NCBI GenBank assembly: GCA_005887995.1
Contig: VBJD01000034.1
Location: 1-56,479 of the forward strand
Direction: 5' to 3'
Length of the DNA: 56,479 nt
Source of the DNA: Chloroflexota bacterium
Lineage (GTDB): Bacteria > Chloroflexota > Limnocylindria > P2-11E
Part shown: piece by piece, positions 16,579 to 48,635 of the stretch
Layout of the letters: the number at the start of each line of letters is the position of its first letter
Numbering within the stretch: the stretch's first letter is position 1
The notes under the pieces: generated by a model
Databases searched by the model: none
What the model was told of the DNA's origin: nothing
What the model saw: the letters and a program-made list of their open reading frames with translations, nothing else
Program-made: the position numbers and the translations under genes

Positions 16579-16618
16579 ACGCGCGGCCCGCGCGGTTGCC
16601 GCCTGACGAAACCCTGAC

Positions 16619-16647
16619 TTGACAGAGTGAAACGGTCGGAATCGAAT
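16619..16647 (+). promoter_or_regulatory. Candidate sigma-70-type promoter TTGACA-N17-TCGAAT upstream of the TRAP operon
   Basis: A perfect -35 hexamer lies at 16619-16624, with a 17-nt spacer and a weak -10 at 16642-16647. GGAGG at 16671-16675 precedes GTG 16686. Confidence 0.3.
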
Positions 16648-16685
16648 GAGGCCGCCGTCCCAGTTGGGTTGGAGGTGGACTACTG

Positions 16686-17879
16686 GTGAGCGTTCTTTCG
16701 CGCCTGTCTCGCCGATCGCTACTGAAGTACGGTTCGCTCTCGGGGCTCGGCGCATTCATCACCGCGTGCCTCGCGCAGAACGCACCGACGACCTCGCAGG
16801 CACCCGGCACCGGTGCCGCCGCGACGAGCAGCGGCGCATCGAGCGTCGCTCCCGCTGCCAACGCGATCACCTGGAAGATCCAGTCCGGCTGGGCCGGCAA
16901 CGACATCTTCCAAACGATGTTCCTCAACTGGAAAGCAAGCGTCGAGGAGATGTCGGGCGGCCGGATCAAGATCGACGCGCTGCCGGTGAACACGATCACG
17001 AACAACAACGGCATGCTCGACGCGGTCCATGCCGGGACGCTGGACGGCGCGCACGAGGTGCCAGCCTACGGGCCGTTCCAGAAGGACCACGCCGCGAGCC
17101 TCATCGGCACCGGTCCGATGATGGGCATGAGCGGCCAGATGTGGCTGTCGTGGTACTGGTACGGCGGTGGCCAGCAGCTCTACCAGGACCTCATCCAAAA
17201 GAAGCTCAAGCTCAACGTCGTCTCCTTCCTACACATGCCAATGCAGAACCAGCCCCTCGGGTGGTTCAAGGATGAGATCAAGTCACCTGACGACTTCAAG
17301 GGCATGAAGTTCCGGACCGTCGGTCTCGCGACCGGCATCTATCAATTCATGGGCGCGAGCGTCATCAATGTCGCCGGCGCGGATGTGGCGTCGTCGCTCG
17401 ATCGTGGCGTCATCGACGCCGCCGAGTTCAACAACACCACCTCGGACACCGCATACGGCCTCCCGGACGTGCGCAAGATCTGCATGACGCAGTCGTACCA
17501 CCAGCCGAGCGAGATCCTCGGTCTCGATCTGAATAAGACGAAGTTCGACTCGATGCCGAAAGACCTCCAGGCGATCATGAAGTGGTCGGTCATTGCCGCC
17601 TCTGCGGACGGCGAGTGGATACAGATGGCGAAGAACTCCGAGGACTACGCGAAGCTCGTCGCCCGTGGCATCAAGTTCATCAAGACGCCGCAATCAGTAC
17701 GCGATTCGCAACTCCAAGCCTGGGACAAGGTCATCGCCGACGAGTCGAAGGACAATCCGGAGTTCGTCGCGATCCTCAAGTCGCAGAAGGCCTGGGCCGA
17801 GCGGATCTTCCCCTGGGCGGACACGGTCAACATCCGCACGCCCGATCCGGTGTCGTTCGCCGCACGGCCGAAGGTGTAG
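16686..17879 (+). CDS. dctP: TRAP transporter substrate-binding protein (DctP family, Tat-type signal)
   Basis: It has an RRSLLKYGSLSGLGAFITAC signal and a DctP-like body (WKIQSGW..., KFRTVGL..., IDAAEF). Confidence 0.8.
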   Translation: MSVLSRLSRRSLLKYGSLSGLGAFITACLAQNAPTTSQAPGTGAAATSSGASSVAPAANAITWKIQSGWAGNDIFQTMFLNWKASVEEMSGGRIKIDALPVNTITNNNGMLDAVHAGTLDGAHEVPAYGPFQKDHAASLIGTGPMMGMSGQMWLSWYWYGGGQQLYQDLIQKKLKLNVVSFLHMPMQNQPLGWFKDEIKSPDDFKGMKFRTVGLATGIYQFMGASVINVAGADVASSLDRGVIDAAEFNNTTSDTAYGLPDVRKICMTQSYHQPSEILGLDLNKTKFDSMPKDLQAIMKWSVIAASADGEWIQMAKNSEDYAKLVARGIKFIKTPQSVRDSQLQAWDKVIADESKDNPEFVAILKSQKAWAERIFPWADTVNIRTPDPVSFAARPKV

Positions 17880-17913
17880 CCCGCGGACGACTTGCTTCTT
17901 GGAACCTATCGTG

Positions 17914-17942
17914 ACGGGGCCCTGGCGGATCCAGGGCCCCGT
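17914..17942 (+). promoter_or_regulatory. Intercistronic 12-bp perfect hairpin (ACGGGGCCCTGG-CGGAT-CCAGGGCCCCGT) between dctP and dctQ
   Basis: I read it directly from the sequence. It sits 35 nt after the dctP stop and 23 nt before the dctQ start. Confidence 0.6.
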
Positions 17943-17964
17943 CTGATGTCGTAGAGGGACCGAA

Positions 17965-18573
17965 GTGCAGCGACTCCTGTTCTCAATAGACCGATTCAGC
18001 GCCTGGTCGGGCAAGGCCGCTGCATGGCTCGTGCTCGCCAGCACGCTCCTCATTAGCTACGACGTCCTCATGCGCTACCTTTCGAAGCCGTTCGCCACAG
18101 GCTGGTTTGGCGAGCTCATCCGCAACATCTGGTTCACCTACAACTTCTCGTACGACATGTCCTACTACCTGTACGCGACCCTCTTCATGCTCGGCGGCGC
18201 CTACGCACTCTCGCGAGCGCAGCACGTGCGCGGCGACATCTTCTATCGGAGCTGGCCCGTGCGCGTACAGGGCGGCGTCGACTTCGCGCTAATGCTGCTG
18301 GCGTTCTATCCGGGCATCCTCGCGATGGTCTCGGTGGGCGCGCAGTGGGCCGGACTCTCCTGGTCCATCCACGAGCGCTCGCCTACAGGGGTGTCAGGGC
18401 CCCCGCTCTACCCACTGAAGACGGTCATTCCGCTAGCGGCCGGGCTCATGGCGGTCCAGGGCGTGGCGGAGACGATCCGCGCGTTCCAGGCGCTCCGCAC
18501 GGGCGTCTGGCCGCCCCGCCTCGCTGACGTCGAGGAGACCGAGACGATCCTCGCAAGGCAGAGCGAGGTCTAG
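17965..18573 (+). CDS. dctQ: TRAP transporter small permease (DctQ family)
   Basis: The ~200-aa four-helix membrane protein lies between the DctP and DctM genes. Confidence 0.75.
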   Translation: MQRLLFSIDRFSAWSGKAAAWLVLASTLLISYDVLMRYLSKPFATGWFGELIRNIWFTYNFSYDMSYYLYATLFMLGGAYALSRAQHVRGDIFYRSWPVRVQGGVDFALMLLAFYPGILAMVSVGAQWAGLSWSIHERSPTGVSGPPLYPLKTVIPLAAGLMAVQGVAETIRAFQALRTGVWPPRLADVEETETILARQSEV

Positions 18574-19932
18574 TTGAGCCCGGAATACCTCGGGCTGGCG
18601 ATGCTCGCGCTGATGGTCGCCGCGATCCTTGTCGGTTTCCCGACCGCATTCACGCTCATGTCCCTGGGCATCACGTTCGGCTACCTGGGTATGGGCTTCC
18701 TCGTCTTCGACCTCGCCGTGCAGCGCGTGTTCTTCGTGATGCAGAACGATGTGCTCGTGGCCATCCCGCTGTTCCTCTTCATGGGCTACATCATCGAGAG
18801 GGCCGGCATCCTCGACGAGCTGTTCCACGCCGTGAACGTCATGTTCGGCTGGCTGCCGGGCTCGCTCGCCGTGGCGACGCTCGCCACGGGAACCATCTTC
18901 GCGACCGCCACCGGCATCGTCGGCGCGTCGGTCACGCTCCTCGGCCTCCTTGCGTTCCCGGCGATGGTGCGCGCGGGCTACAACAAGCGCTTCGCCGCGG
19001 GGACCGTGACCGCGTCGGGCACGCTGGGCATCCTCATCCCGCCGAGCGTGCTGCTGATCCTTTATGGGTTCGTCGCCGGAGTCTCGGTCCCCCGCCTGTA
19101 CGCGGGAGCCTTCCTTCCCGGATTCATGCTCTCGTCGCTCTACCTCGGGTACATCGTGCTCTGGGCGAAGTTCCGGCCGCACGATGCCCCGAACCTCTCG
19201 AAGGAACAACAGGAGCACCTGACCGCGTCACAGACGCTGGTCCTTATCTTCCGTGGCTTCGTGCCGATCGTGACGCTCATCCTGTTCGTGCTCGGCGCGA
19301 TCTTCTTCGGCCTTGCGACCCCGTCCGAAGGAGCCGCGCTCGGCGCGCTCGGCGGCATCATCTTGGCCGCCGCACACAAGCGCCTCTCGTTTTCGATGCT
19401 CCGCGAGTCCGTGTTCCTGACGGTACGCACCGCCGCGATGGTCGGATGGCTGCTCGTCGGCTCGAGTATCTTCGCCGCGGTCTTCGCGCGCCTCGGCGGC
19501 GCGCAGATCATCGGCGACTTCATCCTCGGCATGAAGCTCTCGCCCGAGGTGTTCTTCTGGGTCGTGCAGGGGATCATCTTCCTGTTGGGCTGGCCGCTGG
19601 AATGGACGGAGATCACGATCATCTTCATGCCGCTCTTCCTGCCACTGCTGGCCGAGTACCACCGCCAGTATCCGGACAGCATCGCCACCGATGCCTTCTA
19701 TTTCGGCATCATGGCCGCGCTCAACCAGCAGACGTCATTCCTCTCGCCGCCGGTCGCGATGTCGGCGTACTACCTACGCGGCGTCGCGTCGAAGCTAGTC
19801 ACGCTCAATGAGATCTTCCAGGGCATGTACCCGTTCCTCGCGATACAGCTCGTGTCGATGGCCGTGCTTTGGCTTGTCCCGTGGCTGGCGTATGGCCCCG
19901 CCGTCGCGATATTCGGAGAGAGCTTCCGCTAG
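18574..19932 (+). CDS. dctM: TRAP transporter large permease (DctM family)
   Basis: The 452-aa polytopic protein has a TTG start adjacent to the dctQ stop and a typical DctM hydrophobic profile. Confidence 0.8.
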   Translation: MSPEYLGLAMLALMVAAILVGFPTAFTLMSLGITFGYLGMGFLVFDLAVQRVFFVMQNDVLVAIPLFLFMGYIIERAGILDELFHAVNVMFGWLPGSLAVATLATGTIFATATGIVGASVTLLGLLAFPAMVRAGYNKRFAAGTVTASGTLGILIPPSVLLILYGFVAGVSVPRLYAGAFLPGFMLSSLYLGYIVLWAKFRPHDAPNLSKEQQEHLTASQTLVLIFRGFVPIVTLILFVLGAIFFGLATPSEGAALGALGGIILAAAHKRLSFSMLRESVFLTVRTAAMVGWLLVGSSIFAAVFARLGGAQIIGDFILGMKLSPEVFFWVVQGIIFLLGWPLEWTEITIIFMPLFLPLLAEYHRQYPDSIATDAFYFGIMAALNQQTSFLSPPVAMSAYYLRGVASKLVTLNEIFQGMYPFLAIQLVSMAVLWLVPWLAYGPAVAIFGESFR

Positions 19933-20396
19933 CGCCGCACATCGGCGAACATCTCCTCGAGGAACGCTCGCAGATCCTTTCGCTGACTCTGCGCTCCACC
20001 TACGAAGATCCCGGCTATGACGAGCGCTCCCACGACCGACACCGCGACCTCTTCCACCGATACCGTGGGGTCCGGTTGCCGCGTCGCGATGCCCGCCGCG
20101 ACAAGGGCATACAGGACGTAGAACACGGACACCAGGACGCGCGTACGAGCCGGCGTGATGAACGACACTTCCAGGCGGGAGCCGCGCTGGGCCGCCTCGA
20201 CGCGGCCACGCGCGTGGATGGCCCGCTTCTGACGTTCCCAGATCTCGAACTCACGGGGTCCGACGACGCCCACGTATTCGTTCGTCGTCTTCAGCACGCC
20301 GAATGCGCGCTTGCCGCGGCGGTTGATGCGCGCGGAGATGCGGTCGAGCGCGCCCTGCGGCGCGATGGCGATGTCGGATGACCAGTTGGTCGTCAT
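19929..20396 (-). CDS. Hypothetical protein with two C-terminal TM helices
   Basis: I trimmed the track ORF 19929-20492 to ATG 20396 (MTTNWSSD...), because the upstream part overlaps tRNA-Pro. Confidence 0.45.
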   Translation of the reverse strand: MTTNWSSDIAIAPQGALDRISARINRRGKRAFGVLKTTNEYVGVVGPREFEIWERQKRAIHARGRVEAAQRGSRLEVSFITPARTRVLVSVFYVLYALVAAGIATRQPDPTVSVEEVAVSVVGALVIAGIFVGGAQSQRKDLRAFLEEMFADVRR

Positions 20397-20423
20397 CGGG
20401 GCCGTATAGTGGTCATCACCGCA

Positions 20424-20497
20424 CGGGGTGTAGCGCAGCTTGGTAGCGCGTTGCGTTCGGGACGCAAAGGCCGGCGGTTCAAGTCCGCCCACCCCGA
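20424..20497 (+). tRNA. tRNA-Pro (anticodon CGG)
   Basis: It folds as CGGGGTG-TA-GCGC..GCGC-G-TTGCG-TTCGGGA-CGCAA-AGGCC-GGCGG-TTCAAGT-CCGCC-CACCCCG-A, 74 nt. The acceptor stem is identical to that of the Pro-GGG gene. Confidence 0.9.
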
Positions 20498-20569
20498 CAA
20501 GGACAGAAGGCAGGAGCTGTTCCTGTCATGACAGAACATCCGTTCTAGCATTCTCTACCGAGATGGCTG

Positions 20570-20854
20570 ATGGACGCGGCGGTCTCCATGCGTCGATGTT
20601 CGCGCTGTGGCGTGACGAAGCGCCTCAGTGCAGCTCACCGTCGCGGCGACCAGAGATCTCGTCGCTCGCGGCGCCGCCGGCGCAGTGACGTTCTTGTCGC
20701 CCGCATGCGTGAGGTCAAGTCGGCTCCGCGTATGGACTGCGGTGGGAGCTTCCATAGATTTGGCGTCCCTGATCTCGTCTGTGTGAACTGTCACGCCGTT
20801 CGGACGTTTCAGAGACGAGAAGAGGCTCCGTATTTGTCTGCCACAGCGATCTGA
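20570..20854 (+). CDS. Small Cys-rich HNH-endonuclease-like protein, possibly a truncated remnant
   Basis: It reads RRCSRCGVTKRLSAAHRRG...DCGGSFHRF...LVCVNCHAVRT, which resembles the CxxC...CxxCH zinc-finger/HNH pattern. It lies in a lower-GC 400-nt gap next to the tRNA. Confidence 0.3.
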   Translation: MDAAVSMRRCSRCGVTKRLSAAHRRGDQRSRRSRRRRRSDVLVARMREVKSAPRMDCGGSFHRFGVPDLVCVNCHAVRTFQRREEAPYLSATAI

Positions 20855-20894
20855 GCTCGCGTAGGACACTCGACCACTGCACTAGGTTGTCGTC

Positions 20895-22205
20895 GTGACC
20901 CTGCTGCTCTGCGCCGCGCTGCCGCTCATCGCGGCGGCGATCATCGCGCTCGCCGGGGACCGCGTCGGTCGGCGCGGCGGCGTCGCCATCTCGTCCGCGG
21001 CACTCGTCCTCGCGTTCGGTGCATCGGTCGCGATCGGCCAGGCCTTCGCCGCCGGCAAGAGCTCGCTCGTGGCTGAGCTCGGACCATGGTTGCCGCTGCG
21101 CGGTGGTGACATCGCGCTCGTGGTCGTGCCGACGACGCTGCCCGTGTTGATCGCGATGACTCTCGTGAGCGCGGCCATCGCGGTCGCGTCGTGGCGCGTC
21201 CGACAAACCCGTGCCTATCAGCTCGCGATCCTGCTCGGGACCGCGGCGCTCGTCCTCGTCGCCACCGCGGGCAACCTCGCGCTCTTCACCGCTGCCTTCG
21301 GCCTCCTTGGCGCCGCGACGTACATCGCGCTCTCGCACGACCGCGAGCGTGCGGCCGCGGCGGCGAGTGCCGAGCGCGCACTCGTCGTCGATCGGTTGGG
21401 CGACGGCGCGCTGCTTCTCGCGACGCTCGGCTATCTCGCGCTCTTCCGCACGCTGGATCTCGCCGAGATCGAGACGCGAGTGGTCGCAACACGTGTCGCC
21501 GACATCACGTTCATCGGCCCCAGCGTGTTCCTCTGCGCGGGGATCCTCGCGAAATCTGCGCAGCTGCCGTTCCAGGCGCGGGCGATGGCGCTGCGCGAGG
21601 CGCCGCTCGGTCTCGCGACGTTCGGCGCGCTGGCGTTCGCGGCGAACGCCGTCGCGCTCACGCGCGTGTCGTTTCTCGTGCATCCGGGCGTGCTCGCTGC
21701 CGCCGCGGCGCTCGGTACGCTCTCCGCGCTCCTGGCGGTCGTGCTCGCGGCCACGCGCGCCGACGGCCGCGCGGCGCTCGCGTGGATCGCGATCGCACCG
21801 GCCGGCATCGAGATCGTCACTATCGGCGCTGGCGCGAGCGAGATGGCGCTCACGATCTTCGTGGTCACGGCGATCGCGCTCACCTCGCTCACCGCGATCG
21901 CGGCGATCGGGCGTCCGCACCTTCGCTGGCGCGGTGCTGGTCCGGCGCGTGCGCGGCGCGCGCTCGCAGACGGGTTCGGATTCCTCGCGGTCTTCGTCGC
22001 GGTCGCGCGCGGCTATGGCGCGATCGCCAAGGCGCTCGAAGACGGGACCGACGCCTCGCTCGATCGCCTTCTCGGGTGGGTCGCCGCGGCGACGCTGCGT
22101 GCCGGACGGATCGTCGCGCACGCCGAGGCCGGGCCGGCGTGGCGCGTCGAGGCCATCGGAGTGGCGGCGCTTATCGCATTCGTCGCGTACTGGGGACTGC
22201 GGTGA
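20895..22205 (+). CDS. NuoL/MrpA-like antiporter-type membrane subunit, short (436 aa) and degenerate
   Basis: RLGDGALLLATLG and ILAKSAQLPFQ resemble the NuoL motifs (R)VGD.GLL.G and GKSAQ.PLH.WLPDAM.GPTP. The His and the WLPDA...PTP residues are replaced, and the C-terminal lateral-helix region is absent. Confidence 0.6.
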   Translation: MTLLLCAALPLIAAAIIALAGDRVGRRGGVAISSAALVLAFGASVAIGQAFAAGKSSLVAELGPWLPLRGGDIALVVVPTTLPVLIAMTLVSAAIAVASWRVRQTRAYQLAILLGTAALVLVATAGNLALFTAAFGLLGAATYIALSHDRERAAAAASAERALVVDRLGDGALLLATLGYLALFRTLDLAEIETRVVATRVADITFIGPSVFLCAGILAKSAQLPFQARAMALREAPLGLATFGALAFAANAVALTRVSFLVHPGVLAAAAALGTLSALLAVVLAATRADGRAALAWIAIAPAGIEIVTIGAGASEMALTIFVVTAIALTSLTAIAAIGRPHLRWRGAGPARARRALADGFGFLAVFVAVARGYGAIAKALEDGTDASLDRLLGWVAAATLRAGRIVAHAEAGPAWRVEAIGVAALIAFVAYWGLR

Positions 22206-23611
22206 TCGCGACCGCGGTCATCGCCCTTCCGCTCGCGCTCGCCGTCGTGTCGCTCCTCCCGCCGCTTGCCCGGCGCACGCGGCCCCTTACGGTCGTCGCG
22301 GGGCTCGCGGTCGCCGTGCTCGGGTTCACCGGTCCGATGCTCCCCGTGCGCGCCAGCGTCCACGCGCCGTGGGCGCCGATCCTCGGTCTCAGCTACGCGG
22401 TCGAACTCGACGCGTTCGCGGCGATCTTCGTCGCAGCCACGGGTCTCGTGTTCGCCGCGGTCGTCGCGTCCAGCGATCGCATCGGGCACGCGCGCGCGTA
22501 TCACGCGCTGTTGTCCGTACTGCTCGCCGCGCTGGTCGGCGCTTTCGTGGCGCGCGATCTCGCGCTCTTCCTGCTGTTCTGGGAGCTCGCGCTCGCGATC
22601 GCTGCGCTCCTCATATCGCAGTGGGGTGGCGTCGGTCGGTCCGACGCCGCGGTTCGGGTGCTCGTCACCGCGCTCGTCGGCAGCGCGCTCTACATCGTCG
22701 TGATCGTGTCGCTCGCGGTCGCCCGGGGGTCGCTCGACAGTGACGTGCTCCGCGCACGCCCGCTTCCCGCGTCGGCGCAGCTTCTTCCCGCGGTGCTCCT
22801 CTGCGCCGCGTTCCTCGTCACGCTGCCGGTGCTGCCGTTCCAGTCGTGGCTCATCCGCGCCTTTGTCGCTGGGCCGCGCGAGGTCGCGCTGCTGCTCGGT
22901 GCGGGCCTTTCGAGCGTCGCGCTGTACGCCGTCATGCGGCTCTGTGTCGGACTGTTCCCGCAGGGCATGAGCGTGGCCGCTCCGGCGTTCGTCGCGCTCG
23001 CCGCTGTGGGGACGCTCTACGGCGCGGTCATCGCCTCACGGCAGGACGATCTGCGCCGGCTGGCGGCGTTCGTCGCGTTCTCGACCATCAACCTCGCGGC
23101 CGTGGGCGCTTTTTCGGGCACAGAGGTCGGCCTGCGCGGCGCGACCCTCGCCGCGATCTCGCGCGAGATCCTGCTCACCGCGCTGGTCGTCGCGATCGCG
23201 TGTGTCGCTCGACGGAGCGGCGCGGCGTCGCTCGCTCGCGCCGGCGGTCTTGCGACGTCGAGTCCCCGCCTCGCGACGCTCACCACGGTCACCGTGCTCG
23301 CGCTCGTCGGCATACCAGGCAGCAGCGCGTTCGCAGCGGACTACCTCGTCCTCGCCGGCGCATACGAGCGTTTCCCGACCGCGGCCGCCGTCGTGGCGAT
23401 CGTGATCATCGCATCGGCGATCTGGGCCGCGCGAACGTTGCGCCGAGCGTTCCACGGTCCGCCGCTCGCGCACGCAGGCGACCTGCGGTGGCGCGAGACC
23501 GCGATCATCCTGCCGCTTCTCCTCCTGAGCCTCGCGATCGGCGTGGTACCGCGCTCGATCACCGATCGCGTGCCCGCGGACGTCCTGCCCGCGCTCGAGG
23601 CGCCGCGATGA
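22202..23611 (+). CDS. NuoM-like antiporter-type membrane subunit, degenerate
   Basis: Its GTGA start overlaps the previous stop. LFLLFWELALA retains the TM5 Glu. The TM7 region VTLPVLPFQSWLIRAFVAGPRE replaces the canonical K.P..P.H.WLPDAH.EAPT. Confidence 0.6.
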   Translation: MIATAVIALPLALAVVSLLPPLARRTRPLTVVAGLAVAVLGFTGPMLPVRASVHAPWAPILGLSYAVELDAFAAIFVAATGLVFAAVVASSDRIGHARAYHALLSVLLAALVGAFVARDLALFLLFWELALAIAALLISQWGGVGRSDAAVRVLVTALVGSALYIVVIVSLAVARGSLDSDVLRARPLPASAQLLPAVLLCAAFLVTLPVLPFQSWLIRAFVAGPREVALLLGAGLSSVALYAVMRLCVGLFPQGMSVAAPAFVALAAVGTLYGAVIASRQDDLRRLAAFVAFSTINLAAVGAFSGTEVGLRGATLAAISREILLTALVVAIACVARRSGAASLARAGGLATSSPRLATLTTVTVLALVGIPGSSAFAADYLVLAGAYERFPTAAAVVAIVIIASAIWAARTLRRAFHGPPLAHAGDLRWRETAIILPLLLLSLAIGVVPRSITDRVPADVLPALEAPR

Positions 23612-24915
23612 GTGGCGCCGACATACCACTGCTCGTCCCGGAGATCGTGCTGCTCGCCGGAGCCGCGGTCGTCACTGCGATCGATCGAATCTGGCGCACG
23701 GACGCGTTCGTCGCGCCGCTCATCGGCGTCGCGAGCGCTCTCGCCGCGGCGGCGGCCGCCAGCGTCGCCGGTATCGGCCATGACCTCTTCGGGGGCGCAG
23801 TCCGCCGAGACAGCGCGACGCTCTTTTTCAGCGTGCTCACTGCGACGTCGACGGCAGCGGCGTTGGCGATCGGCGTCCGTCAGGTCGCGCCACGCACCGT
23901 CGCGCTGCTCCTTGTCTCGTGCTCGGGCGCCATCGTCATCGTCGCGAGCGGGGATCTTGGTGTCCTTGCGCTCGGCGTCACGGTCATGGTGCTGCCTCTC
24001 GCGCTTCTCGAGTCGCGCGGCCGTCTCATCACGCTGGGCGCGGCGGGCCTGGTCGTCGTCGGCGCCATCGATCTCGCGCTGGCGACGGGTTCGTCGTCGC
24101 TGTCTGCGCTCGACGTAGTGGCGACACCCCTCGGATCCGCCGGCCTTGCACTCCTGCTCGCGGGCCTCGTGATGATCGCCGGCGTCGTGTCGCCGCGATC
24201 CCATGCACCGGTCGACACGGGAACGTCTGACGCGTACGTCGCCGTCGTCGTGCGGATCGCGGGGCTCGGCGCGCTCATGCGTGTCGGCGCGGCGCTCGCA
24301 TCGTCCGCGGTGATCGATTGGCGCGCCAGCATCGCGGTCATCGCCGCCGTCAGCGTGATCGTCGCGAGCCTCGTCGCGCTCGGCCAGACCAGCCCGCGCC
24401 GCATCCTCGCGTATGCATCGATGGCGCAGGCGGGTTACGCGGCGGTCGCGCTCACCGCCGGCTTCGCATCGGGCCCTACGGCGGCGTTCTTTCTCGCCGC
24501 GTTCGCGTTGATGACCGTCGGTGCGCTTGCGCTGATCGGGCGCCTGCCGTCAGGCGCGAAGATCGGCGACCTGCGTGGCCTCGCGCGGCAGCGTCCGCTG
24601 TTCGTGGTGGCGCTCGGGACGTTGCTGCTTGCGCTCGCGGGACTGCCGCCCTCGATCGGATTCGTCGCGAAGCTCTACGTCCTCGAGCTCGCCGTAGGCG
24701 CTCAGCTCGCGTGGCTCGCGCTCATCGCCGCGCTCGCGAGCGTGCTCTCCGCCGTGGCGTACCTGCGGATCCTGTTCGCATGTCTCGGCGAAGGAGACGG
24801 CGTGCTGCCGCGAGGCCGGGTCTATGCCATCGGGCCGGCCGCAGCGGTCGTTGTAGTGCTCGGAGGCCTCGTTCCCGGACCGCTGCTCGGTATCGTGCAG
24901 AACGTGCGTTTCTAG
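23608..24915 (+). CDS. NuoN-like antiporter-type membrane subunit, degenerate
   Basis: Its ATGA start overlaps the previous stop. It has the 14-TM-like profile, YASMAQAGY, and GLPPSIGFVAKLYVL (NuoN-like). The central PFH.W.PDVY.GAPT motif is eroded. Confidence 0.6.
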   Translation: MSGADIPLLVPEIVLLAGAAVVTAIDRIWRTDAFVAPLIGVASALAAAAAASVAGIGHDLFGGAVRRDSATLFFSVLTATSTAAALAIGVRQVAPRTVALLLVSCSGAIVIVASGDLGVLALGVTVMVLPLALLESRGRLITLGAAGLVVVGAIDLALATGSSSLSALDVVATPLGSAGLALLLAGLVMIAGVVSPRSHAPVDTGTSDAYVAVVVRIAGLGALMRVGAALASSAVIDWRASIAVIAAVSVIVASLVALGQTSPRRILAYASMAQAGYAAVALTAGFASGPTAAFFLAAFALMTVGALALIGRLPSGAKIGDLRGLARQRPLFVVALGTLLLALAGLPPSIGFVAKLYVLELAVGAQLAWLALIAALASVLSAVAYLRILFACLGEGDGVLPRGRVYAIGPAAAVVVVLGGLVPGPLLGIVQNVRF

Positions 24916-24922
24916 GTTCGAG

Positions 24923-24995
24923 AGGGGCTGGCCGGAATCGAACCGGCGACACGAGCCTTAGGACGGCCCTGCTCTATCCGCTGAGCTACAGCCCC
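24923..24995 (-). tRNA. tRNA-Arg (anticodon CCU)
   Basis: The minus strand folds as GGGGCTG-TA-GCTC..GAGC-A-GGGCC-GTCCTAA-GGCTC-GTGTC-GCCGG-TTCGATT-CCGGC-CAGCCCC-T, 73 nt. Confidence 0.85.
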
Positions 24996-25030
24996 CGCGC
25001 TACTCAATTATCCGTCGACGGCTGCCACTC

Positions 25031-26547
25031 TTGTCACCGAGCGTCGACTGTGTCTTGATGCAACGCGTGCGCACCACGTCCCGCGTCGTCGTCCGAACGA
25101 TTCGGCGGGACATTGCCCTTGGTTTGACGGCCGGCAAGCGCGAGGAGCTGGTTACTCTCGCGCGACGTTTCGCACGCGGTCGGAAAACTCACGTCGATGC
25201 GTACTGGCACCCGCGGTTCTTCGCCACGGTGTCCGATCCTCGCCTGCGGGTCGTACAGAGCCAGCGGCGAGCCGGCTGGCTCGTTCCCGACCTCAGCGTC
25301 CATCAGAACAAGGTGTGCCTTGAGTCGAGCCTAGCGTTAGTACGAAGCTCCTGGTCCGGGACAGTCAAGGCCGCTATGCGCGTTGTCTCTCGCGATAAGG
25401 GTTGGGATAGCTCCCGGCTGTGGGCTCTTGCGACGCTGCGTTCCGTGGACCAGATTCAGGAGTGCCTCGTCACGCCGTTACGACTGGCGACGCGACAACA
25501 GCGTCGAATGCGGCGACTGCTGCTCCGGGTGCGAGGCGGGAAGCCGCGAGAATCGGGGAACCTGTGGTTCGAGCTCGACTGCAACCTGTACAGGCCATTT
25601 CATCGATCGACCGGCCATTTCCGAGGCGCCTGGCTGGCAGTGACAGGTACACGGCCAGGTCATCGCGTCAACGTGCCTCTTGCCGGATCGTCGCTCGACG
25701 TGTTTGCTTCGCGGACCGGACGCGCTGATAGCAGACCGAACATTCGTGTCGTAATCCGCGAACGCGTGACGTGTTACGTCGCCACGCGGACGCCAGTCAA
25801 GCCTCGCCGTCAAGGATGCACGCTCGGTCTGGACAAAGGTTTGAACACACTTCTCGTTTCTTCTGATGGAACAGTGAGACGGCCAGAGCGTATGGTCGCG
25901 ACGCGTCGAATCAGCTTGAAGAAATGATTGCTGCATCCGACCGACGGCGAAATCGCGCGCGTCTCGTGGCGTATGAACGATCAATCCGCAACTCGAGCCC
26001 GACCCACTCTCGACAAATCCGTCGCCACAATCTTGGCCGACGCAAACAGGTGCGCGTGCGTTCTTGCGAGTCATCCAGGCTTCGTGACTTCGTCAATCGC
26101 TCGCTGAACGAGTTGTTTCATGACACAGGCATCTTGCGTATGTACGCGGAGGACCTGACGTTTCGACCCGGTTGGCCCGGTCGAGCCATCAACCGACGCT
26201 TGGGCCGATGGTTAAAGGGTTACCTGCACCATCGTCTCATGCACAAAGCCGAGCTCAACGGTGTTGAGCTTCAGACCGTGAACGCGGCCTACACGAGTCA
26301 GACCTGCCCTCGCTGTTGGTTCGCCTCAAGGGGCAACCGACGTGGAGACAGGTTCAGATGGCGAATTGGACGCGCCTGGGACTCAAACGAAGCGTCCTTC
26401 ATGCACCAAGGTGCGTCGAGGACGTGGATCGAGTCGCGAACTGTGGCCGGCGGACGCACACGTCCGCCAGTCATCCATACGGCGGCGCTCTATCCACTCG
26501 CCGCCGCGGCCGAGAGCGTGACCGACGGTTCGACGTTTACAGCGTGA
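25031..26547 (+). mobile_element. tnpB: TnpB-like (IS200/IS605-IS607 OrfB, RuvC-type) gene, frameshifted near 25924 and with an eroded zinc finger: probable decayed element
   Basis: ORF 25031-25927 ends with the RuvC-I-like motif LGLDKGLNTLLVSSDG. ORF 25924-26547, in a different frame, has MYAEDL (RuvC-II Glu) and NAAYTSQTCPRC. The expected second CxxC and the DxDxNAA motif instead read FRWRIGRAWDSNEAS. GC is lower than the flanks, and no TnpA is adjacent. Confidence 0.6.
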
Positions 26548-27520
26548 AGAAGGCGTCGTTCGTGTGGTCGAACGGGTTCGCGCTGGTCGCCGTCATGTTC
26601 GGTGCGGTCACGCGGAACGTCTGGCCGCGCTTGTCCATCACCAGGCGCGTGCGGCGCCCGCTGTCCTCAAGACGTAGCGGCAACCACTCGTAGTCGCAGA
26701 GCGCCTGCAGGTGATATCCGATCTCGCGACCGCTCTCGAGATCCTCGATGAGATCGGCGGGCGGATCCGCGAGCGCGAACGAGAGCGAGCCGTCCCCAGT
26801 GTGCATCGGCGTGAGGCTCTTCATGACCGTCATTCCGAAACGGTCCGCGATGCGCACGCGCGTCGCACGTGTCGACGTGTCGCAGTCGAGTTCGAGGCGG
26901 AGCACCGAGCCGTCGAAGTGCAGGCCCCACCTGAAGCGCAGGCCGGACTCCTCCGCGGCGCCGTCGAATTCGGCGCGCGGTGCGTCCGCTGAGGCCGCGC
27001 GCTCCTGAGAACGGCGTGCTTCAGCGAGGTCGCGGTCGAGCTTGCGGATGTGACGCTCGCGCGCGCGACCCTGCACGACGAGGAGGTCCGCCGTCACCTG
27101 GGCGCGATCTTGCTCTCGCTTGAGGCTCGCAAGGTCGTTCACCGCCCACTCGAACTGCCGGATGACCATGGCGACGCGATCGTCGGCTTCGGTGTTCAGC
27201 GCTTTGACCGCGTTCTCATGCACGGCGCGGCTCTTGGCTTGCGCGTGACGCAGGGCTTGATACGCGAATGCGGCGCCGGCGAGAACACCGCCGATCGATC
27301 CCAGCCCGAGCCAGCGATCACCGCCGACGCCGAAGCTCGCGATGAGCACACCGACGGTGAGCGCGACGGCCCACGGCAGGAGCTCGTCGCGTCGGTCGCG
27401 CTCGGCAGGCGCTTGTGCGTGCCCTGCGGAAGCGTTCGCGGCGCAGAGCGCGCAGGCATGCACGTCATGCGCGACGGCAGTTACGCCGGCATCCACCACA
27501 CCCACCCGTGTACTCCCCAA
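26537..27520 (-). CDS. Hypothetical membrane-anchored coiled-coil protein with an unassigned C-terminal domain
   Basis: There are two TM helices (WAVALTVGVLIASFGV, LGSIGGVLAGAAFAY), followed by a charged heptad-like stretch (DLASLKREQDRAQVTADLL...DRDLAEARRSQER). A ~150-aa beta-rich domain follows. Confidence 0.5.
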   Translation of the reverse strand: MGSTRVGVVDAGVTAVAHDVHACALCAANASAGHAQAPAERDRRDELLPWAVALTVGVLIASFGVGGDRWLGLGSIGGVLAGAAFAYQALRHAQAKSRAVHENAVKALNTEADDRVAMVIRQFEWAVNDLASLKREQDRAQVTADLLVVQGRARERHIRKLDRDLAEARRSQERAASADAPRAEFDGAAEESGLRFRWGLHFDGSVLRLELDCDTSTRATRVRIADRFGMTVMKSLTPMHTGDGSLSFALADPPADLIEDLESGREIGYHLQALCDYEWLPLRLEDSGRRTRLVMDKRGQTFRVTAPNMTATSANPFDHTNDAFFTL

Positions 27521-27613
27521 CGACGCTAGAGACCCGGCGTGAACAGTCGGTCCCGGGCGCGCGCATGCTCATCCCCCAATAGGGTGGGGGTGGTGTCTAC
27601 GGGGTAGCCCTGT

Positions 27614-28378
27614 GTGACACTTTTCCATATGGCGACGCTCACGGCGCGGGCGCCGCGGCGCATCGGGGCACCGATCGTCCTCATCCTGCCCGCGCTGCTC
27701 TTCGGCCTTCTGGTATCGGTCCAGTGGCGGACACAGCTCGAGCGCAGCGAGTTAAGCGTCCGCTACAACGCGCCGCTGCTCGACGCCGCGAGGTCGCTCC
27801 AGAGCGAACAGGAGGTCTTGAAGAAGCAGCTCGCCGACCTGCGCGCGCAGCTCGATGAGATCCAGCGAGGCGCCGCGAGCCAGTCCACCGCGAGCCGCGA
27901 CCTGCAGGCGCAGATCGAGGACCTGCGCTCGGCCGCCGGTCTGACCGAACGGACGGGCGATGGGGTGCAGATCGTCCTCGACGACGCTCACACCACCGTC
28001 ACGGCGCCAGCCGCGAACGTGGACAAATCGATCTGCCACTCGACCGACCTCACGGACATCATCAACGCGGCTTGGCGCGGCGGCGCACAGGCGATCGCGG
28101 TGAACGGCGAGCGCGTCGTCGGATCGACGAGCGTCTACTGCGTCGGTTCGACCATCATGGTGAACGGCACGCTCATGTCGCCGGCCTTCACCATCAGCGT
28201 CATCGGGCCGCAGAACGAGCTGCTCGGGGCCTACGACGATCCGAACGAGCTCAAGGACGTCAAGCAGCGGCGTGATGTGTACGGGCTCGGCTTCCGCGTG
28301 ACGCGCGCGTCGGGCCTTCGCGTGCCGGCGTACGCGGGCGCGCTCAACGTGAAGTACGCGACGCCGACGGAGCGCTGA
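27614..28378 (+). CDS. DUF881-family protein (division/envelope-associated)
   Basis: It has an N-terminal TM helix, a coiled-coil and a C-terminal domain with GDGVQIVLDD...INAAWRGGAQAIAVNGERV. Confidence 0.7.
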   Translation: MTLFHMATLTARAPRRIGAPIVLILPALLFGLLVSVQWRTQLERSELSVRYNAPLLDAARSLQSEQEVLKKQLADLRAQLDEIQRGAASQSTASRDLQAQIEDLRSAAGLTERTGDGVQIVLDDAHTTVTAPAANVDKSICHSTDLTDIINAAWRGGAQAIAVNGERVVGSTSVYCVGSTIMVNGTLMSPAFTISVIGPQNELLGAYDDPNELKDVKQRRDVYGLGFRVTRASGLRVPAYAGALNVKYATPTER

Positions 28379-29037
28379 TGCGCGGCAACGCGGGCGTCAT
28401 CTGGATGTCGATCGTCGCGTTGTTCCTCGGCGTGCTCGCGGTCACGCAGATCAAGGCGCAGGACGTGTACACGCGGAGCCTCGAACTCGAGACACCGTCA
28501 TCGCTCACGACGCTCATCGCGAACCTCGCCGAGCGTAACAACGCGCTGCGCGACGAGATCTTCGATATGAAGCTGCGCACTGAGGCGGCGCGCGACGACG
28601 CGGCGAACGGGCGTGGCACGCTCACCGAGGCGCAGCGTCAGCTCGCGCAGCTGCGGGTCTTCGCCGCGCGCACGTCGGTGAAGGGGCAGGGCATCAGCGT
28701 GCGGATCGACGGCGCGTTCGACGACAAGGCGCTGTCCGATCTGGTGAACGAGATGCGCAACGCGGGCGCCGAAGCGATCTCGTTGAACACCGTCCGCGTC
28801 GGACCGCGGTCGTACTTCGGTATCACCACAGACAAGTCGCTGACCGTCGACGGTTCGGCGATCCGTGGACCGTGGACCGTCTCGGCAGTCGGTGCGCCCG
28901 AGGTGATGTACGTCGCGATGACGCGGACCGGCGGGATCATCGGCCAGTTCGAGCTCATCTACCGCGGTACCCGCTTCAACGTGAGCAGGGAGAGCGCGCT
29001 CGATCTTCCGAGCCTGGCGAACCCACCTCGCGGATAG
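28378..29037 (+). CDS. DUF881-family protein (second paralog)
   Basis: It has the same architecture: GQGISVRIDG...VNEMRNAGAEAISLNTVRV. Confidence 0.7.
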   Translation: MRGNAGVIWMSIVALFLGVLAVTQIKAQDVYTRSLELETPSSLTTLIANLAERNNALRDEIFDMKLRTEAARDDAANGRGTLTEAQRQLAQLRVFAARTSVKGQGISVRIDGAFDDKALSDLVNEMRNAGAEAISLNTVRVGPRSYFGITTDKSLTVDGSAIRGPWTVSAVGAPEVMYVAMTRTGGIIGQFELIYRGTRFNVSRESALDLPSLANPPRG

Positions 29038-29050
29038 ACTCCGTCGTCTC

Positions 29051-29290
29051 GTGAGCGACATGAAAACAAGGAAGAAGCCTATCGGCCCGATGCCGCTCTA
29101 CCTCGATGACGTCGTCGTGCTGCGCAAGCCGCATCCGTGCGGCGGCGACACCTGGCGCATCGTCCGGCTGGGTGCCGACATCGGCCTGCGCTGCATGACC
29201 TGCGAACATCGCGTGCTCGTCGCGCGCGCGGCGGTCGAGCGCGATATCAAGCGCTTCGTGGAGCGCGGGCCGCTGGCCCCGGTCGAGTAG
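29051..29290 (+). CDS. DUF951-family small protein
   Basis: LRKPHPCGGDTWRIVRLGADIGLRCMTCEHRV matches the KHPCG...W...R.G.D..L.C..C pattern. Confidence 0.65.
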   Translation: MSDMKTRKKPIGPMPLYLDDVVVLRKPHPCGGDTWRIVRLGADIGLRCMTCEHRVLVARAAVERDIKRFVERGPLAPVE

Positions 29291-42207: not shown

Positions 42208-42795
42208 ATGGCGATCGAAGAGCGTCCCGCCGAGTCAAAGGGCGTCCCGATCGACTTCGAACAGGACGTCATTCAGCGCCGTCCGGTGAGCTCGCAGGCA
42301 GGCCTCGCCGGCGAGGACATCCCCATTCGCAGATCGGTCATCGCCGAAGACGACAACGTCGTCTTCACGACCGTGACGAATCTCATCAACTGGGCGCGGT
42401 CGCGTTCGCCCTGGCCGCTCGGCTACGGCCTCGCGTGCTGCGCGATCGAGATGTTCGCGAGCGTCGCGCCGCAGCATGACCTCTCGCGTTTCGGGGCGGA
42501 GGTGTTCCGTTCGAGCCCGCGCCAGGCGGACGTGATGATCGTGGCCGGGACCGTGACCCACAAGATGGCGCCCCGCCTCCGCCGGCTCTACGAACAGATG
42601 CCCGAGCCGAAGTGGGTCATCGCCATGGGCAACTGCGCATCGAGCGGCGGTGAGTTCTGGGACAGCTACTCGACCCTGCAGGGCGTCGACACGGTCGTGC
42701 CGGTCGATGTCTATGTTCCGGGCTGCCCGCCGCGTCCCGAAGCGCTGACCGAAGGCGTCCTCCGGCTGCGCGAAAAGATCTCCAGGGGCGGCTAG
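42208..42795 (+). CDS. nuoB: NADH-quinone oxidoreductase subunit B
   Basis: It carries [18 protein letters not shown] and VPGCPPRPE, the ligand pattern for cluster N2. Confidence 0.9.
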
Positions 42796-42796
42796 T

Positions 42797-42892
42797 GCGA
42801 ACGAGGAGCGCGGGGGCAGGGGCCCCCGTTCAGCGCGCGACAGCACGCGTGACCGCGACGAGGGAGCAGCCTTGAGCGTGTCTCCCGTGCGC
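42797..42892 (+). repeat. Intercistronic repeat copy A (hairpin CGGGGGC-AGGG-GCCCCCG at 42811-42828, then GTTCAGCG..., SD, nuoD start)
   Basis: It aligns by eye with 44060-44158 over ~90 nt with few mismatches and one small indel. Confidence 0.8.
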
Positions 42893-44059
42893 AGCACAGA
42901 GATCGGGAGAGAGGGCGCGCTCGTCGACCTTCCGATCATCGAAACAGAGGAAGGGCTCCAGACCGAAGAGCTCATCCTCAACATGGGGCCGCAGCATCCG
43001 TCGACGCACGGCGTCCTGCGTCTGGTGCTGAAGATGTCCGGCGAGAAGGTCATCGAGTGCATCCCGGTGATGGGGTATCTCCATCGAGGCCTCGAGAAGA
43101 TCTTCGAGTGGCGCACGTACCACCAGGGCATCCGCTACGCGGACCAAGCCGACTACGTCTCGAACATGCTCAACGAACACGCATACGCCGGGGCGATGGA
43201 GGCGATCGGCGGCATCGACGTGCCGCGCCGCGCCGAGTACATCCGCGTGATCGTGGACGAGATGAGCCGGTGCGCCGCGCACCTCATCTGGCTCGGCACG
43301 TACGGCCTCGACGTCGGTGCGACGACACCGTTCCTCTGGTGCCTACGCGACCGCGAAGAGATCCTCGACATGTTCGAGGAAGTCTGTGGCTCGCGCATGA
43401 ACTTCAACTATTACCGCCCGGGGGGCGTGCTCTACGACCTGCCGCAGGGCTGGCTCGGGAAGCTCGAGCGGTTCCTGGATCGCTTCGCGGACCGCATCGA
43501 GGCTGACTACATGCGCATCCTCGAAGGAAACGAGATCTTCCTCGAGCGGACCATCGGCGTCGGCACGATCCCCGCTCACGTCGCGAAGCAGTACGGCATC
43601 ACCGGCCCGATGCTCCGCGCGTCGGGCGTCGACTGGGACCTCCGGCGTGACCGTCCGTACGGGATCTACCCCGAGCTGAAGACGCTGAGGCCAGTCGTGT
43701 TCCCCGACGGCGACGCGTTCGCACGCTTCAAGGTGCGCGTCGGCGAGATGCGGCTTGCGATCGCGCTCATCCGCGAGTGCATCGCGAACTTGCCGGGAGG
43801 CGCGGTGCGCGCTCGGCTCGGCCACGTGTGGAAGTGCCCGAAGGGCGAGGCGTACTACACCGTCGAGGGCGCGAAGGGCGAGGTCGGGATCTACATGATC
43901 AGCGACGGACGCAGTCCGAACCCCTTCCGCGCGAAAATGCGCGGGCCATCCTTCAACAACCTGCAGATCGTCCCGTGGCTGCTCAAGGGACGCCTCGTCG
44001 CGGACGTCGTCGCGATCCTCGGATCGCTCGACTTCGTGTTGGGTGAGGTAGACAGATGA
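42872..44059 (+). CDS. nuoD: NADH-quinone oxidoreductase subunit D (short form; no NiFe-ligand cysteines)
   Basis: It reads NMGPQHPSTHGVLRL, GYLHRGLEK and ...SLDFVLGEVDR. The TTG start has GAGGGAG 5 nt upstream. Confidence 0.9.
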   Translation: MSVSPVRSTEIGREGALVDLPIIETEEGLQTEELILNMGPQHPSTHGVLRLVLKMSGEKVIECIPVMGYLHRGLEKIFEWRTYHQGIRYADQADYVSNMLNEHAYAGAMEAIGGIDVPRRAEYIRVIVDEMSRCAAHLIWLGTYGLDVGATTPFLWCLRDREEILDMFEEVCGSRMNFNYYRPGGVLYDLPQGWLGKLERFLDRFADRIEADYMRILEGNEIFLERTIGVGTIPAHVAKQYGITGPMLRASGVDWDLRRDRPYGIYPELKTLRPVVFPDGDAFARFKVRVGEMRLAIALIRECIANLPGGAVRARLGHVWKCPKGEAYYTVEGAKGEVGIYMISDGRSPNPFRAKMRGPSFNNLQIVPWLLKGRLVADVVAILGSLDFVLGEVDR

Positions 44060-44158
44060 GCGAGCGACGAGCGCAGGGGCAGGGGCCCCTGTTCAGCGAG
44101 CGGCAGCGAGCGTGGCCGCGAGGAGTGAGAACCACCAGCCCTGAGCGTGTCTCGCGTC
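44060..44158 (+). repeat. Intercistronic repeat copy B (hairpin CAGGGGC-AGGG-GCCCCTG at 44074-44091; ends with a ghost copy of the nuoD start region)
   Basis: See copy A. Positions 44136-44157 (cagccCTGagcgtgtctcgcgt) mirror 42867-42888 (cagccTTGagcgtgtctcccgt). Confidence 0.8.
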
Positions 44159-44210
44159 CAGGGGTAGGGGCCCCTGTTCAGCGAGCGACGCGAGCGCGGC
44201 GCGAGATTGA
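44159..44210 (+). repeat. Intercistronic repeat copy C (hairpin CAGGGGT-AGGG-GCCCCTG at 44159-44176), directly upstream of the NuoI/E-like cistron
   Basis: It has the same hairpin plus the GTTCAGCGAGCG core. A G-U wobble sits at the closing pair. Confidence 0.75.
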
Positions 44211-44238
44211 GGTGGATCGCTAACGTGGTGATCCGATA

Positions 44239-44958
44239 GTGCTCGGCATCGTCGACGGCATGGTGCGGACGCTGCAGCACCTCTTCCGCGCGCGTCTCGT
44301 GACGCGGAAGTACCCGTACGAGAAGCGCGAGTTGCCTGAGCGATCGCGCGGCCTCATCGCCCTGCTCCTCGAACCCGAGACGAGCATCTTCAAGTGCGAG
44401 TCGTGCCTCATGTGCGAGAAGGCGTGTCCGCCGCGCGCGATCTCGATCTCGTACAAGTTCCGCAACGGCTTCCGCCGCCGGCCGATGCTCGCGCCGCGCG
44501 CCTCCTATTACCGCATTCGCATGGTGCAGACCGCCCCGTACGGCGATCGGCGGCCGATGTCGACGGCGGTCGTCACCGTCCCCGCGGAGGCGGAGCGCGG
44601 CCTCGATACGAAGAAGGTCGACGAGATCCTGCGCGGTGAGCCCGCGGGGCTCGATCGCATGACGCGCGTTCTCTATCGCACGCACGATGCGTACGGCTAC
44701 CTTCCGTGGACCGCCGCGGAGCGCATCGCCGCCGAATTCGGCAAGACGATGACCGACGTCTACACCGCGGCGTCACTTCTCGCGAACTTCCGCGGTGCCC
44801 CTGAGGGACAGGGGACCGCGGTGCCGCGCGGTGGGCGGAAGTTCACCGGCAACCTCGGCATCGCCGGCGAGTGGCCGGCCGCGTCGCCGGCGCCTGCGCA
44901 CGACACGCTGCGCGAAGACGAGGTGAAGCACGTGCTCGAGCCGACGTATGCCCGCTAA
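44239..44958 (+). CDS. NuoI-like (single 4Fe-4S motif) fused to a NuoE-like N-terminal helical segment that lacks the 2Fe-2S domain
   Basis: The N-terminus GMVRTLQHLFRARLVTRKYPYEKRELPERSRG...CESCLMCEKACP is NuoI-like but has only one CxxCxxCxxxCP. The C-terminal half VDEILRG...RVLYRTHDAYGYLPWTAAERIAAEFGKTMTDVYTAASLLANF is NuoE-like and contains no cysteine. Confidence 0.6.
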   Translation: MLGIVDGMVRTLQHLFRARLVTRKYPYEKRELPERSRGLIALLLEPETSIFKCESCLMCEKACPPRAISISYKFRNGFRRRPMLAPRASYYRIRMVQTAPYGDRRPMSTAVVTVPAEAERGLDTKKVDEILRGEPAGLDRMTRVLYRTHDAYGYLPWTAAERIAAEFGKTMTDVYTAASLLANFRGAPEGQGTAVPRGGRKFTGNLGIAGEWPAASPAPAHDTLREDEVKHVLEPTYAR

Positions 44959-48564: not shown

Positions 48565-48635
48565 CCGCGCCCACGCTCGCGGAACGTCTTCTCGCGCGGA
48601 TACGCGCGCGTGGTGCGATCTCGTTCGCTGACTAC

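Follow-up and report, generated by a model that had tools for sequence, protein, structure and literature searches.

A rapidly evolving nuoL2-nuoM2-nuoN2 trio in a Limnocylindria genome is probably the non-pumping but still-coding tail of a lost second complex I operon

The window analysed here is the whole stretch of 56,479 nucleotides of contig VBJD01000034.1, which belongs to the genome (G000, a draft assembly of 231 contigs, 86.7% complete) of a Candidatus Limnocylindria bacterium of the phylum Chloroflexota. It contains three adjacent genes whose products are related to the antiporter-like subunits NuoL, NuoM and NuoN of respiratory complex I. In the following, genomes are labelled with G numbers, contigs with C numbers, loci with L numbers of three digits and genus-level groups with g numbers, g1 being the genus of this genome. 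The three genes, identified from the translations of their open reading frames (ORFs), are:

20895 to 22205, forward strand: nuoL2 remnant (L2), 436 residues (ORF translation, family profiles, alignments, AlphaFold model)
22202 to 23611, forward strand: nuoM2 remnant (M2), 469 residues (ORF translation, Pfam/NCBIfam profiles, alignments)
23608 to 24915, forward strand: nuoN2 remnant (N2), 435 residues (ORF translation, Pfam/NCBIfam profiles, alignments)

The genes are joined by start/stop overlaps of 4 bases (GTGA and ATGA), which recur in most orthologous trios, and the G+C content at their third codon positions is 0.84-0.88, which is coding-type for this genome. The top NCBIfam models for L2, M2 and N2 are NuoL, NuoM and NuoN, respectively. 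This is in agreement with the first-pass annotation of this DNA, which had recognized three coupled NuoL/M/N-like genes from motifs that are indeed present in the translations. Membership of an NCBIfam family is defined by a whole-protein score above a curated cut-off, and all three proteins score below it: L2 reaches 58.2 and 53.9 bits with the NuoL models NF005141 (cut-off 556) and TIGR01974 (cut-off 407.5), in a match spanning only model positions 5-332 of 615; M2 reaches 261.5 bits with the NuoM model TIGR01972, marginally below the cut-off of 263.8; and N2 reaches 125 bits with the best NuoN model (cut-off 519) and 122.6 bits with TIGR01770 (cut-off 332.6). The orthologs of the sister species G003 clear all three cut-offs (564.4 bits for L2, versus 556; 394.2 for M2; 348.1 for N2). 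The gathering cut-off of the PF00361 family (Proton_antipo_M, 21.5 bits) is exceeded in hmmscan by M2 (116.7 bits) and N2 (96.3 bits); the L2 gene gives 49.1 bits with this family in a six-frame search of the genome, and hmmscan assigns no family to the protein at E 0.1. The alignment of M2 with its intact G003 ortholog is gapless, at 52% identity, and N2 carries a number of small in-frame deletions, including one by which the His region of transmembrane helix (TM) 7 is lost.

Twenty-five Glu, Lys, His and Asp positions of the proton path have been scored in the numbering of the Escherichia coli subunits (10 in L, 7 in M and 8 in N). Thirteen of them, namely D178, K229, K399 and D400 of L, E144, K234, K265, H322 and E407 of M, and E133, K217, K247 and K395 of N, are named in sections of PMC9271201. 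The alignments include the trio, NuoL/M/N of E. coli K-12, the canonical NuoL/M/N of this genome and the orthologous trios of relatives. None of the 25 columns varies between E. coli and the 8-10 canonical sequences of the genus, and 24 of the 25 residues are present in the intact trios of three sister species. Only five are kept in the trio of this genome: D178, K229 and D303 of L2, E144 of M2 and K395 of N2. In L2 (three of ten kept), E144G, H334I, H338T and K342L are found, K399 and D400 are deleted and the position of H254 falls in an alignment gap. In M2 (one of seven kept), the changes are K234T, H241Q, K265S, H322T, H348R and E407D. In N2 (one of eight kept), they are E133T, K217I, K247R, K295R and H305Q, with H224 deleted and the K158 position in a gap. 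The erosion of the proton-channel residues seen by eye in the first-pass annotation is thus borne out (20 of the 25 conserved positions are replaced or deleted), and its register is essentially right. One detail does not hold: the Gln "for the His" that follows the KSAQ motif of L2 is not diagnostic, because E. coli NuoL has Gln and the canonical NuoL of this genome has Tyr at this position. Of 23 key columns, 5 are kept (22%), versus 133 of the 275 non-key columns that are invariant across the canonical genes and intact trios (48%; Fisher p=0.016). When judged from these residues, it is very probable that the trio is non-pumping and that redox-driven, canonical proton pumping is not possible.

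The same positions have been surveyed in 28 trios, excluding sequences under 300 residues. Nine of these trios, including all six with an adjacent second NuoH, keep 23-25 of the 25 key residues, or 16 of 17 if one gene is missing, and the G042 trio keeps 21. In the g12 clade (11 species), 7-14 are kept in the complete sets, mostly 10-14, with common derived residues such as H254Q, H334Q, K399I and D400A of L2. Among the orphan trios of this genus, seven in number, 5-12 of the 25 residues remain, or 3 of 15 in the two trios that are incomplete.

The first-pass annotation had concluded from the length of L2 that it lacks the long C-terminal lateral helix of NuoL. The alignment gives a different picture, in which residues 1-333 of L2 correspond to residues 2-346 of E. 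coli NuoL and residues 355-436 to residues 533-612. The block that is absent is internal (approximately E. coli 347-532, TM12-15) and corresponds to an in-frame deletion of about 170 residues, so that TM15 itself is missing, and L2 keeps TM1-11 together with what is, by this alignment, the homolog of the lateral helix and TM16. The C-terminus of L2, ...AYWGLR, fits the ...AYWxLR ending common to orthologs of 537-608 residues. According to parts of the text of PMC3274701, the amphipathic lateral helix of NuoL sits between TM15 and TM16, it includes Asp542, Lys551 and Pro552 in E. coli, and TM16 starts at Tyr590; all four residues lie within the range matched by the L2 tail. Structure prediction was a check envisaged in the first-pass annotation. 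The AlphaFold2 model of L2, calculated from an alignment of 29 rows, has a mean predicted local distance difference test score (pLDDT) of 79.9 and is confident over residues 1-340. The tail is modelled as a 47-residue helix (363-409) followed by a terminal helix (415-435), with pLDDT values of only 42-57. When this model is compared with known structures by Foldseek, the top matches are all NuoL/ND5/NdhF chains, the best being the E. coli chain 7z7r_L (TMq 0.71 over about 350 columns).

The origin of the trio becomes apparent when its orthologs are considered. In G003, the genes nuoA, B, C, D, E, F, G, H, I, J and K are found directly upstream of L2M2N2 on the same strand, and a second classical 14-gene nuoA-N operon is intact in three sister species of the genus and in two sister genera. 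A second NuoH adjoins the trio in all six intact-trio species that returned any NuoH (G003, G023, G017, G198, G084 and G266); no NuoH at all was returned for G228 (62% complete). Nine orphan species were tested (G000, G002, G041, G013, G014, G078, G233, G185 and G042), and a second NuoH of this kind was found in none of them, although G013 and G014 have one more, weak NuoH-like match as part of an unrelated cluster. Among the genus genomes, only G003, G017 and G023 have a second NuoD (41-45% identity), and the species of the genus with an eroded trio are also without it. Remnants of nuoK2 are found upstream of L2 in G013 (PF00420, 45.6 bits), G014, G042 and the g12 orphans, and none in this window, where a search for nuoK2, J2, I2, H2 and A2 remnants beside the trio found nothing; an apparent match to an A2 remnant was rejected, being the tRNA-Pro gene.

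Orthologous L-M-N trios are present in 10 of the 26 species genomes of the genus. In the class sample of 301 genomes (11 of them unpublished), and among the matches listed, to which 156 more would be added, M2 orthologs of at least 46% identity occur only in g1, g12 and g19, three genera of this family, and the matches listed for other families have at most 41% identity. One unpublished genome, G022, is counted in the genus sample, as one of the 16 without a trio; the residue tables, trees and rates use no unpublished genomes. In the tree of the concatenated L, M and N sequences (LG+G4, quick search; 38 rows, each containing at least two of the three genes), all 28 trios form one clade with genus-level subclades, and the eroded sets nest separately inside g1 and g12. 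The seven eroded g1 trios are joined with support 100, in joins flagged as involving long branches, and the subtree of the canonical genes puts G002 outside the rest; a single orphaning of the g1 trios may be considered, and whether it happened once or several times is not settled by the tree. The trio is very likely nuoL2-nuoM2-nuoN2, left without its partners from the 3' end of a second complex I operon of 14 genes (nuoA2-N2), and this operon would have existed in the ancestor of this Candidatus Limnocylindria family. The "relic module" of the first-pass annotation is therefore correct as to origin, as a remnant of the nuoA-N operon that is intact in G003, and probably incorrect if it is taken to mean simply a pseudogene, as discussed below.

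The trio has evolved rapidly. The terminal branch of this genome has a length of 0.73 for the trio and 0.09 for the canonical set, an approximately 8-fold difference, and the identity of this trio to any other is no more than 36-52%, when the canonical L, M and N of different species are 72-92% identical. The shape parameter alpha of the gamma distribution of site rates is 2.1-2.5 in the eroded g1 set, 0.53-0.84 in the intact trios and 0.27-0.34 in the canonical genes, so that the heterogeneity of rates between sites is nearly gone in the eroded set. Nonsynonymous divergence (dN) to G003 is 0.64 for L2, 0.40 for M2 and 0.51 for N2. Several pairwise maximum likelihood (ML) estimates of the synonymous divergence (dS) of eroded genes are saturated (6-35), and a codon-model omega of 0.11 for the eroded g1 M2 set is not relied on, since this set is saturated too (tree length 15.7).

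Despite this divergence, the reading frames are preserved. Over their entire length, M2 and N2 can be aligned with intact orthologs without any change of frame, and the two parts of L2 lie in the same frame. Frameshifts were sought throughout the trio and none was found, no alternative frame scoring better; candidate frameshifted segments of L2, just two alternative-frame matches, both at E 0.84, were rejected. In neutral simulations, the G003 genes were evolved to the observed amino acid divergence under three mutation spectra, with the following outcome:

Hydropathy correlation at substituted sites: simulated 0.15-0.21 +/- 0.06, observed 0.33-0.43
Arg+Pro content: simulated 14-27%, observed 9-13%
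G+C content at second codon positions: simulated 0.55-0.73, observed 0.53-0.56
Stops per gene: simulated 1.4-5.9, observed 0

Population variants point in the same direction. Contigs of four soil metagenome runs have been placed on positions 16600-29100 of the window; at 90% likeness or more they may include related strains, and the counts that follow cover 40 of the 419 substitutions and 12 of the 22 indels. In the trio, 11 synonymous and 11 nonsynonymous substitutions are seen, the latter mostly hydrophobic swaps, and the ratio of nonsynonymous to synonymous polymorphism (pN/pS) is 0.42 (binomial p=0.034 versus neutrality), when the flanking genes have 10 synonymous and one nonsynonymous substitution (Fisher p=0.027 versus the trio). 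None of the 12 indels falls in the 4 kb of the trio, five fall in the 400-base spacer upstream of it and five in the remnant of a TnpB gene downstream, which served as the local example of a true pseudogene. Orphaned trios can also be conserved: between closely related g12 orphans, ML dN/dS is 0.06-0.18 (NG86 method, 0.13-0.30) for 11 gene pairs with 0-1 gap blocks, the intact trio pairs having 0.00-0.05 (NG86, 0.11-0.20), and therefore selection can keep an orphan trio with an altered proton path. The g12 loci (L090-L100, 11 species) have one derived pattern, with L2 EDKQDQHKIA, M2 ERHKQHE-like and N2 A/R/H...QK, on short branches, and they would seem to be in an altered but stable condition and not to be decaying.

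In the eroded g1 trios, the best-kept block of L2 is the β-hairpin region 51-75, with a pairwise identity of 0.70 versus 0.23-0.50 elsewhere, and the best-kept blocks of the other proteins are M2 251-275 and the TM11-12 region of N2 (0.61-0.64 identity). These blocks fit retained folding and packing, without demonstrating function. It is likely, from the combined sequence evidence, that the trio is still coding, for translated and weakly constrained membrane proteins.

Another group of complex I genes, the cluster nuoB-D-(NuoI-like)-F-(NuoG-like fused to a Pyr_redox_2/GltD-type module)-Methyltransf_28, is found in the window at 42208-49676. The canonical membrane operon nuoA-C-H-J-K-L-M-N of this genome is on another contig (C24:6749-14778, L009), with scores of 386 bits for NuoH and 742 bits for NuoL (cut-off 556). 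NuoD (42749-44059) and NuoF (44927-46153) are both single-copy in the assembly, and the ORF at 44224-44958 has a NuoI-like N-terminus. NuoH is also single-copy in the assembly as far as it is complete, with no second nuoH beside the trio. As there is a canonical membrane operon on C24 and just one copy each of NuoD and NuoF, the nuoB-D-I-F-G cluster, which follows the trio at a distance of 17 kb, provides the soluble half of a complex I that is encoded in two operons. NuoD of this type (73-85% identity) is present in 24 of the 26 genus genomes, the two without it being 67% and 72% complete. The view of the first-pass annotation that the trio is detached from this cluster must consequently be abandoned, as the cluster has its intact membrane operon on C24.

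Some further observations concern genes of the same families. Single in-frame stops (TGA or TAA) occur inside the NuoD matches of G013 (C9:59389-60630), G011 (C104), G009 (C212), G023 (C182) and G001 (C241), and these may be due to faulty assembly, or may terminate a preceding gene that overlaps with nuoD. A lone divergent antiporter-like protein of 473 residues (PF00361, 49.9 bits) is encoded on the reverse strand of contig C8 of this genome (3024-4445, L010), and weak matches akin to it are present in G002, G003, G013, G017 and G023. A third cluster, consisting of two PF00361 proteins and a weakly NuoH-like protein (136-142 bits), is found in G003 (C16:60907-65352), G013 (C54:13041-17468), G014 (C7) and G084 (C107), and was not found in this genome; it may be a membrane module of the Mbx/Hyf type.

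The neighbours of the trio are a TRAP transporter, two tRNA genes and the TnpB remnant. The immediate flanks are:

20424 to 20498, forward strand: tRNA-Pro(CGG), upstream flank (ARAGORN; a conserved stretch by tblastn)
20499 to 20894, no strand: upstream spacer, without a nuoK2 remnant or a sigma-70-like match, and varying in soil populations
24922 to 24995, reverse strand: tRNA-Arg(CCT), downstream flank (ARAGORN)

Both flanks are conserved in relatives: tRNA-Pro adjoins nuoA2 in G003 and (K2)L2 in G013, G002 and G041, and tRNA-Arg is just 3' of nuoN2 in the same four genomes. The tRNA-Pro gene is co-oriented with the trio here and has the opposite orientation in these four. The spacer is 396 bases long, versus about 100 in G041; it shows 1-base indels in the soil populations, where it is also rearranged (skips of 57 and 175 bases). 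The first approximately 32 residues of the reverse-strand ORF at 19929-20525 are the translated complement of the tRNA-Pro gene, so that this gene, which has no Pfam family and whose orthologs adjoin the trio in G041, G014, G016, G002 and G013, probably starts near 20396. The TnpB/Cas12f-like remnant (25031-26547) lies directly 3' of tRNA-Arg, is split into two ORFs and retains only a 39-residue match to the TNB domain; in the soil populations it has 1-base indels and a 138-base replacement.

Taken as a whole, the data are likely explained by an orphaned, fast-evolving, non-pumping but still-coding tail of a lost second complex I, with a role that is maybe only structural. Several observations weigh against this. 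The trio was not found in 16 of the 26 genus species, which gave the canonical NuoN only, and is therefore dispensable. Only 133 of the 275 deeply invariant non-key columns are kept, and the number of invariant L2 columns among the eroded g1 sequences (40) is close to the 36 expected at equal rates. The comparison of dN/dS with orthologs of relatives that was proposed in the first-pass annotation gives for this lineage a rough value of 0.4-0.8 (with a canonical ML dS of about 1.5, dS being near saturation). The scan for sigma-70-like promoters gave 0 matches in 20350-25150, a scan that is uninformative for this phylum, and there is no clear ribosome-binding site 5' of L2. None of the 21 sequencing runs returned for the stretch is an RNA run, 20 of them being soil DNA from 16 studies. 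Finally, as the genome is 86.7% complete, nuoA2-K2 could lie unassembled elsewhere.

It is conceivable that the cluster is dead, its function having been lost with nuoA2-K2, and that it is open only as stops are rare at 70% G+C. This explanation accommodates the nearly homogeneous site rates (alpha 2.1-2.5), the loss of half of the deeply invariant columns, the deletion of about 170 residues from L2, the failure to find the trio in 16 of 26 species and the lack of a promoter match. It also accommodates the open frames, since no more than about 2.2 stops per gene are expected even in random sequence of this composition. However, the lack of any frameshift when the simulations give an estimated 0.9-1.4 nucleotide changes for each codon and approximately 15 in-frame indels are counted by eye in the alignment, the C-termini conserved in frame in all three genes, the lack of the drift in second-position G+C, Arg+Pro and hydropathy that the neutral simulations predict, and the pN/pS of 0.42 with no indel in the trio among the variants listed, when the TnpB remnant has 1-base indels, make a dead pseudogene cluster unlikely. 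Still less likely is a putative alternative, non-pumping distal arm or anchor, in which L2M2N2 would dock on the remaining complex I in place of L1M1N1 and lower its H+/e- ratio. The retention of the trio and its separate orphaning in g1 and g12, the purifying selection on the g12 orphans, the well-kept β-hairpin of L2, the lateral-helix/TM16 homolog retained after the deletion of an even number of helices and the TM12 regions of M2 and N2, which are among their best-kept blocks, would all suit such an arm. It is at odds with the membrane operon that NuoB-D-I-F-G already has and with the presence of this cluster in 24 of 26 genomes, with or without the trio (which occurs in 10), and the N2 residues that would take the signal from NuoK (E133, K217) are gone; the membrane anchor for NuoBD-F-G that the first-pass annotation suggested, to which this arm comes close, is likewise not supported in view of the intact membrane operon and these genome counts. 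It is highly improbable that (K2)L2M2N2 form a cation/proton antiporter of the Mrp type that works on its own: NuoK, L, M and N are homologous to MrpC, A and D, and nuoK2 remnants persist in G013, G014, G042 and the g12 orphans, but none is present in this genome, the Lys/Glu/His chain common with Mrp is mostly lost and no genes of the MrpB, C, E, F or G type adjoin the trio (the rest of the genome was not searched for mrp genes). A broader proposal, also rather unlikely, is that after two separate losses selection kept L-M-N, sometimes K-L-M-N, for a new redox-independent job without the classical Lys/Glu/His chain, the candidates being an exchangeable distal arm that does not pump, with a lower H+/e- ratio of the remaining complex I as the effect, or a free-standing membrane scaffold.

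For the orphaned and still-coding tail, the following course of events may be envisaged. nuoA2-K2 are gone from this lineage, and the remaining nuoL2-M2-N2 then evolved about eight times faster than the housekeeping nuoLMN. Of the 25 conserved charged or His positions along the proton path, 20 were lost, as was the four-helix block of L2, and redox-driven proton pumping would no longer be possible. Selection appears, on indirect evidence, to hold the frames, the overlaps and the membrane hydropathy, and to purge some amino acid changes and indels. In what is the weakest step, L2, M2 and N2 may still fold and pack as an inert or structural membrane assembly. This assembly may be slowly decaying, and may be kept as truncated or misfolded forms would be costly, or for a minor non-pumping role.

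When compared with known systems, the trio has the same L-M-N order as complex I (NuoL/NuoM/NuoN or ND5/ND4/ND2; E. coli 7Z7R and 3RKO, Thermus thermophilus 4HE8); the AlphaFold model of L2 has the NuoL fold, M2 matches PDB NuoM chains (E 9e-41) and the trio appears to descend directly from a bona fide nuoLMN set. It differs in the absence of its own nuoA-K, in the loss of 20 of 25 proton-path residues and of TM12-15 of L2, and in NuoL and NuoN scores far under the NCBIfam cut-offs. In cyanobacteria, NdhD and NdhF paralogs swap into NDH-1; they keep a CO2 uptake function and have partner proteins. The trio likewise consists of extra copies of antiporter-like subunits, which form alternative distal modules in cyanobacteria, but no partner or such function is seen here. 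MrpA and MrpD (6Z16, 7QRU) have a homologous antiporter-like fold, and M2 matches them with E-values of 1.8e-20 to 5e-16; the NuoM, NuoN and NuoL models outscore the Mrp models, however, and the charged chain is eroded. Genomes that contain a second complex I operon, as well as incomplete operons without nuoEFG, are described in portions of Spero et al. 2015 (PMC4453560). The intact form of G003, G023 and G017 is such an operon, beside the two-operon enzyme; here only the last three genes survive, in eroded form, and those portions describe no L-M-N remnant. Complex I variants with extra pumping subunits are mentioned in part of PMC9040806. In the literature retrieved, including PMC4453560, bioRxiv 2025.03.13.643058 and PMC9040806, no orphan or eroded nuoLMN remnant was found described, and nothing on complex I of Limnocylindria.

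In annotations and metabolic models, the genes of the trio, which may be named NuoL, NuoM and NuoN by similarity, should not be counted as proton-pumping complex I, nor as part of the nearby nuoB-G cluster. The family provides a natural series of one pumping module, with an intact state (24-25 of the 25 key residues), a partly changed state under purifying selection (10-14 residues, dN/dS 0.06-0.18) and the heavily eroded state of this genome (5 residues). In this series, the features lost first are the ion pair of N2, the exit Lys/Asp of L2 and the connecting His residues, and the features that outlast the loss of pumping are the fold, the β-hairpin, the TM12 region and the putative lateral-helix tail.

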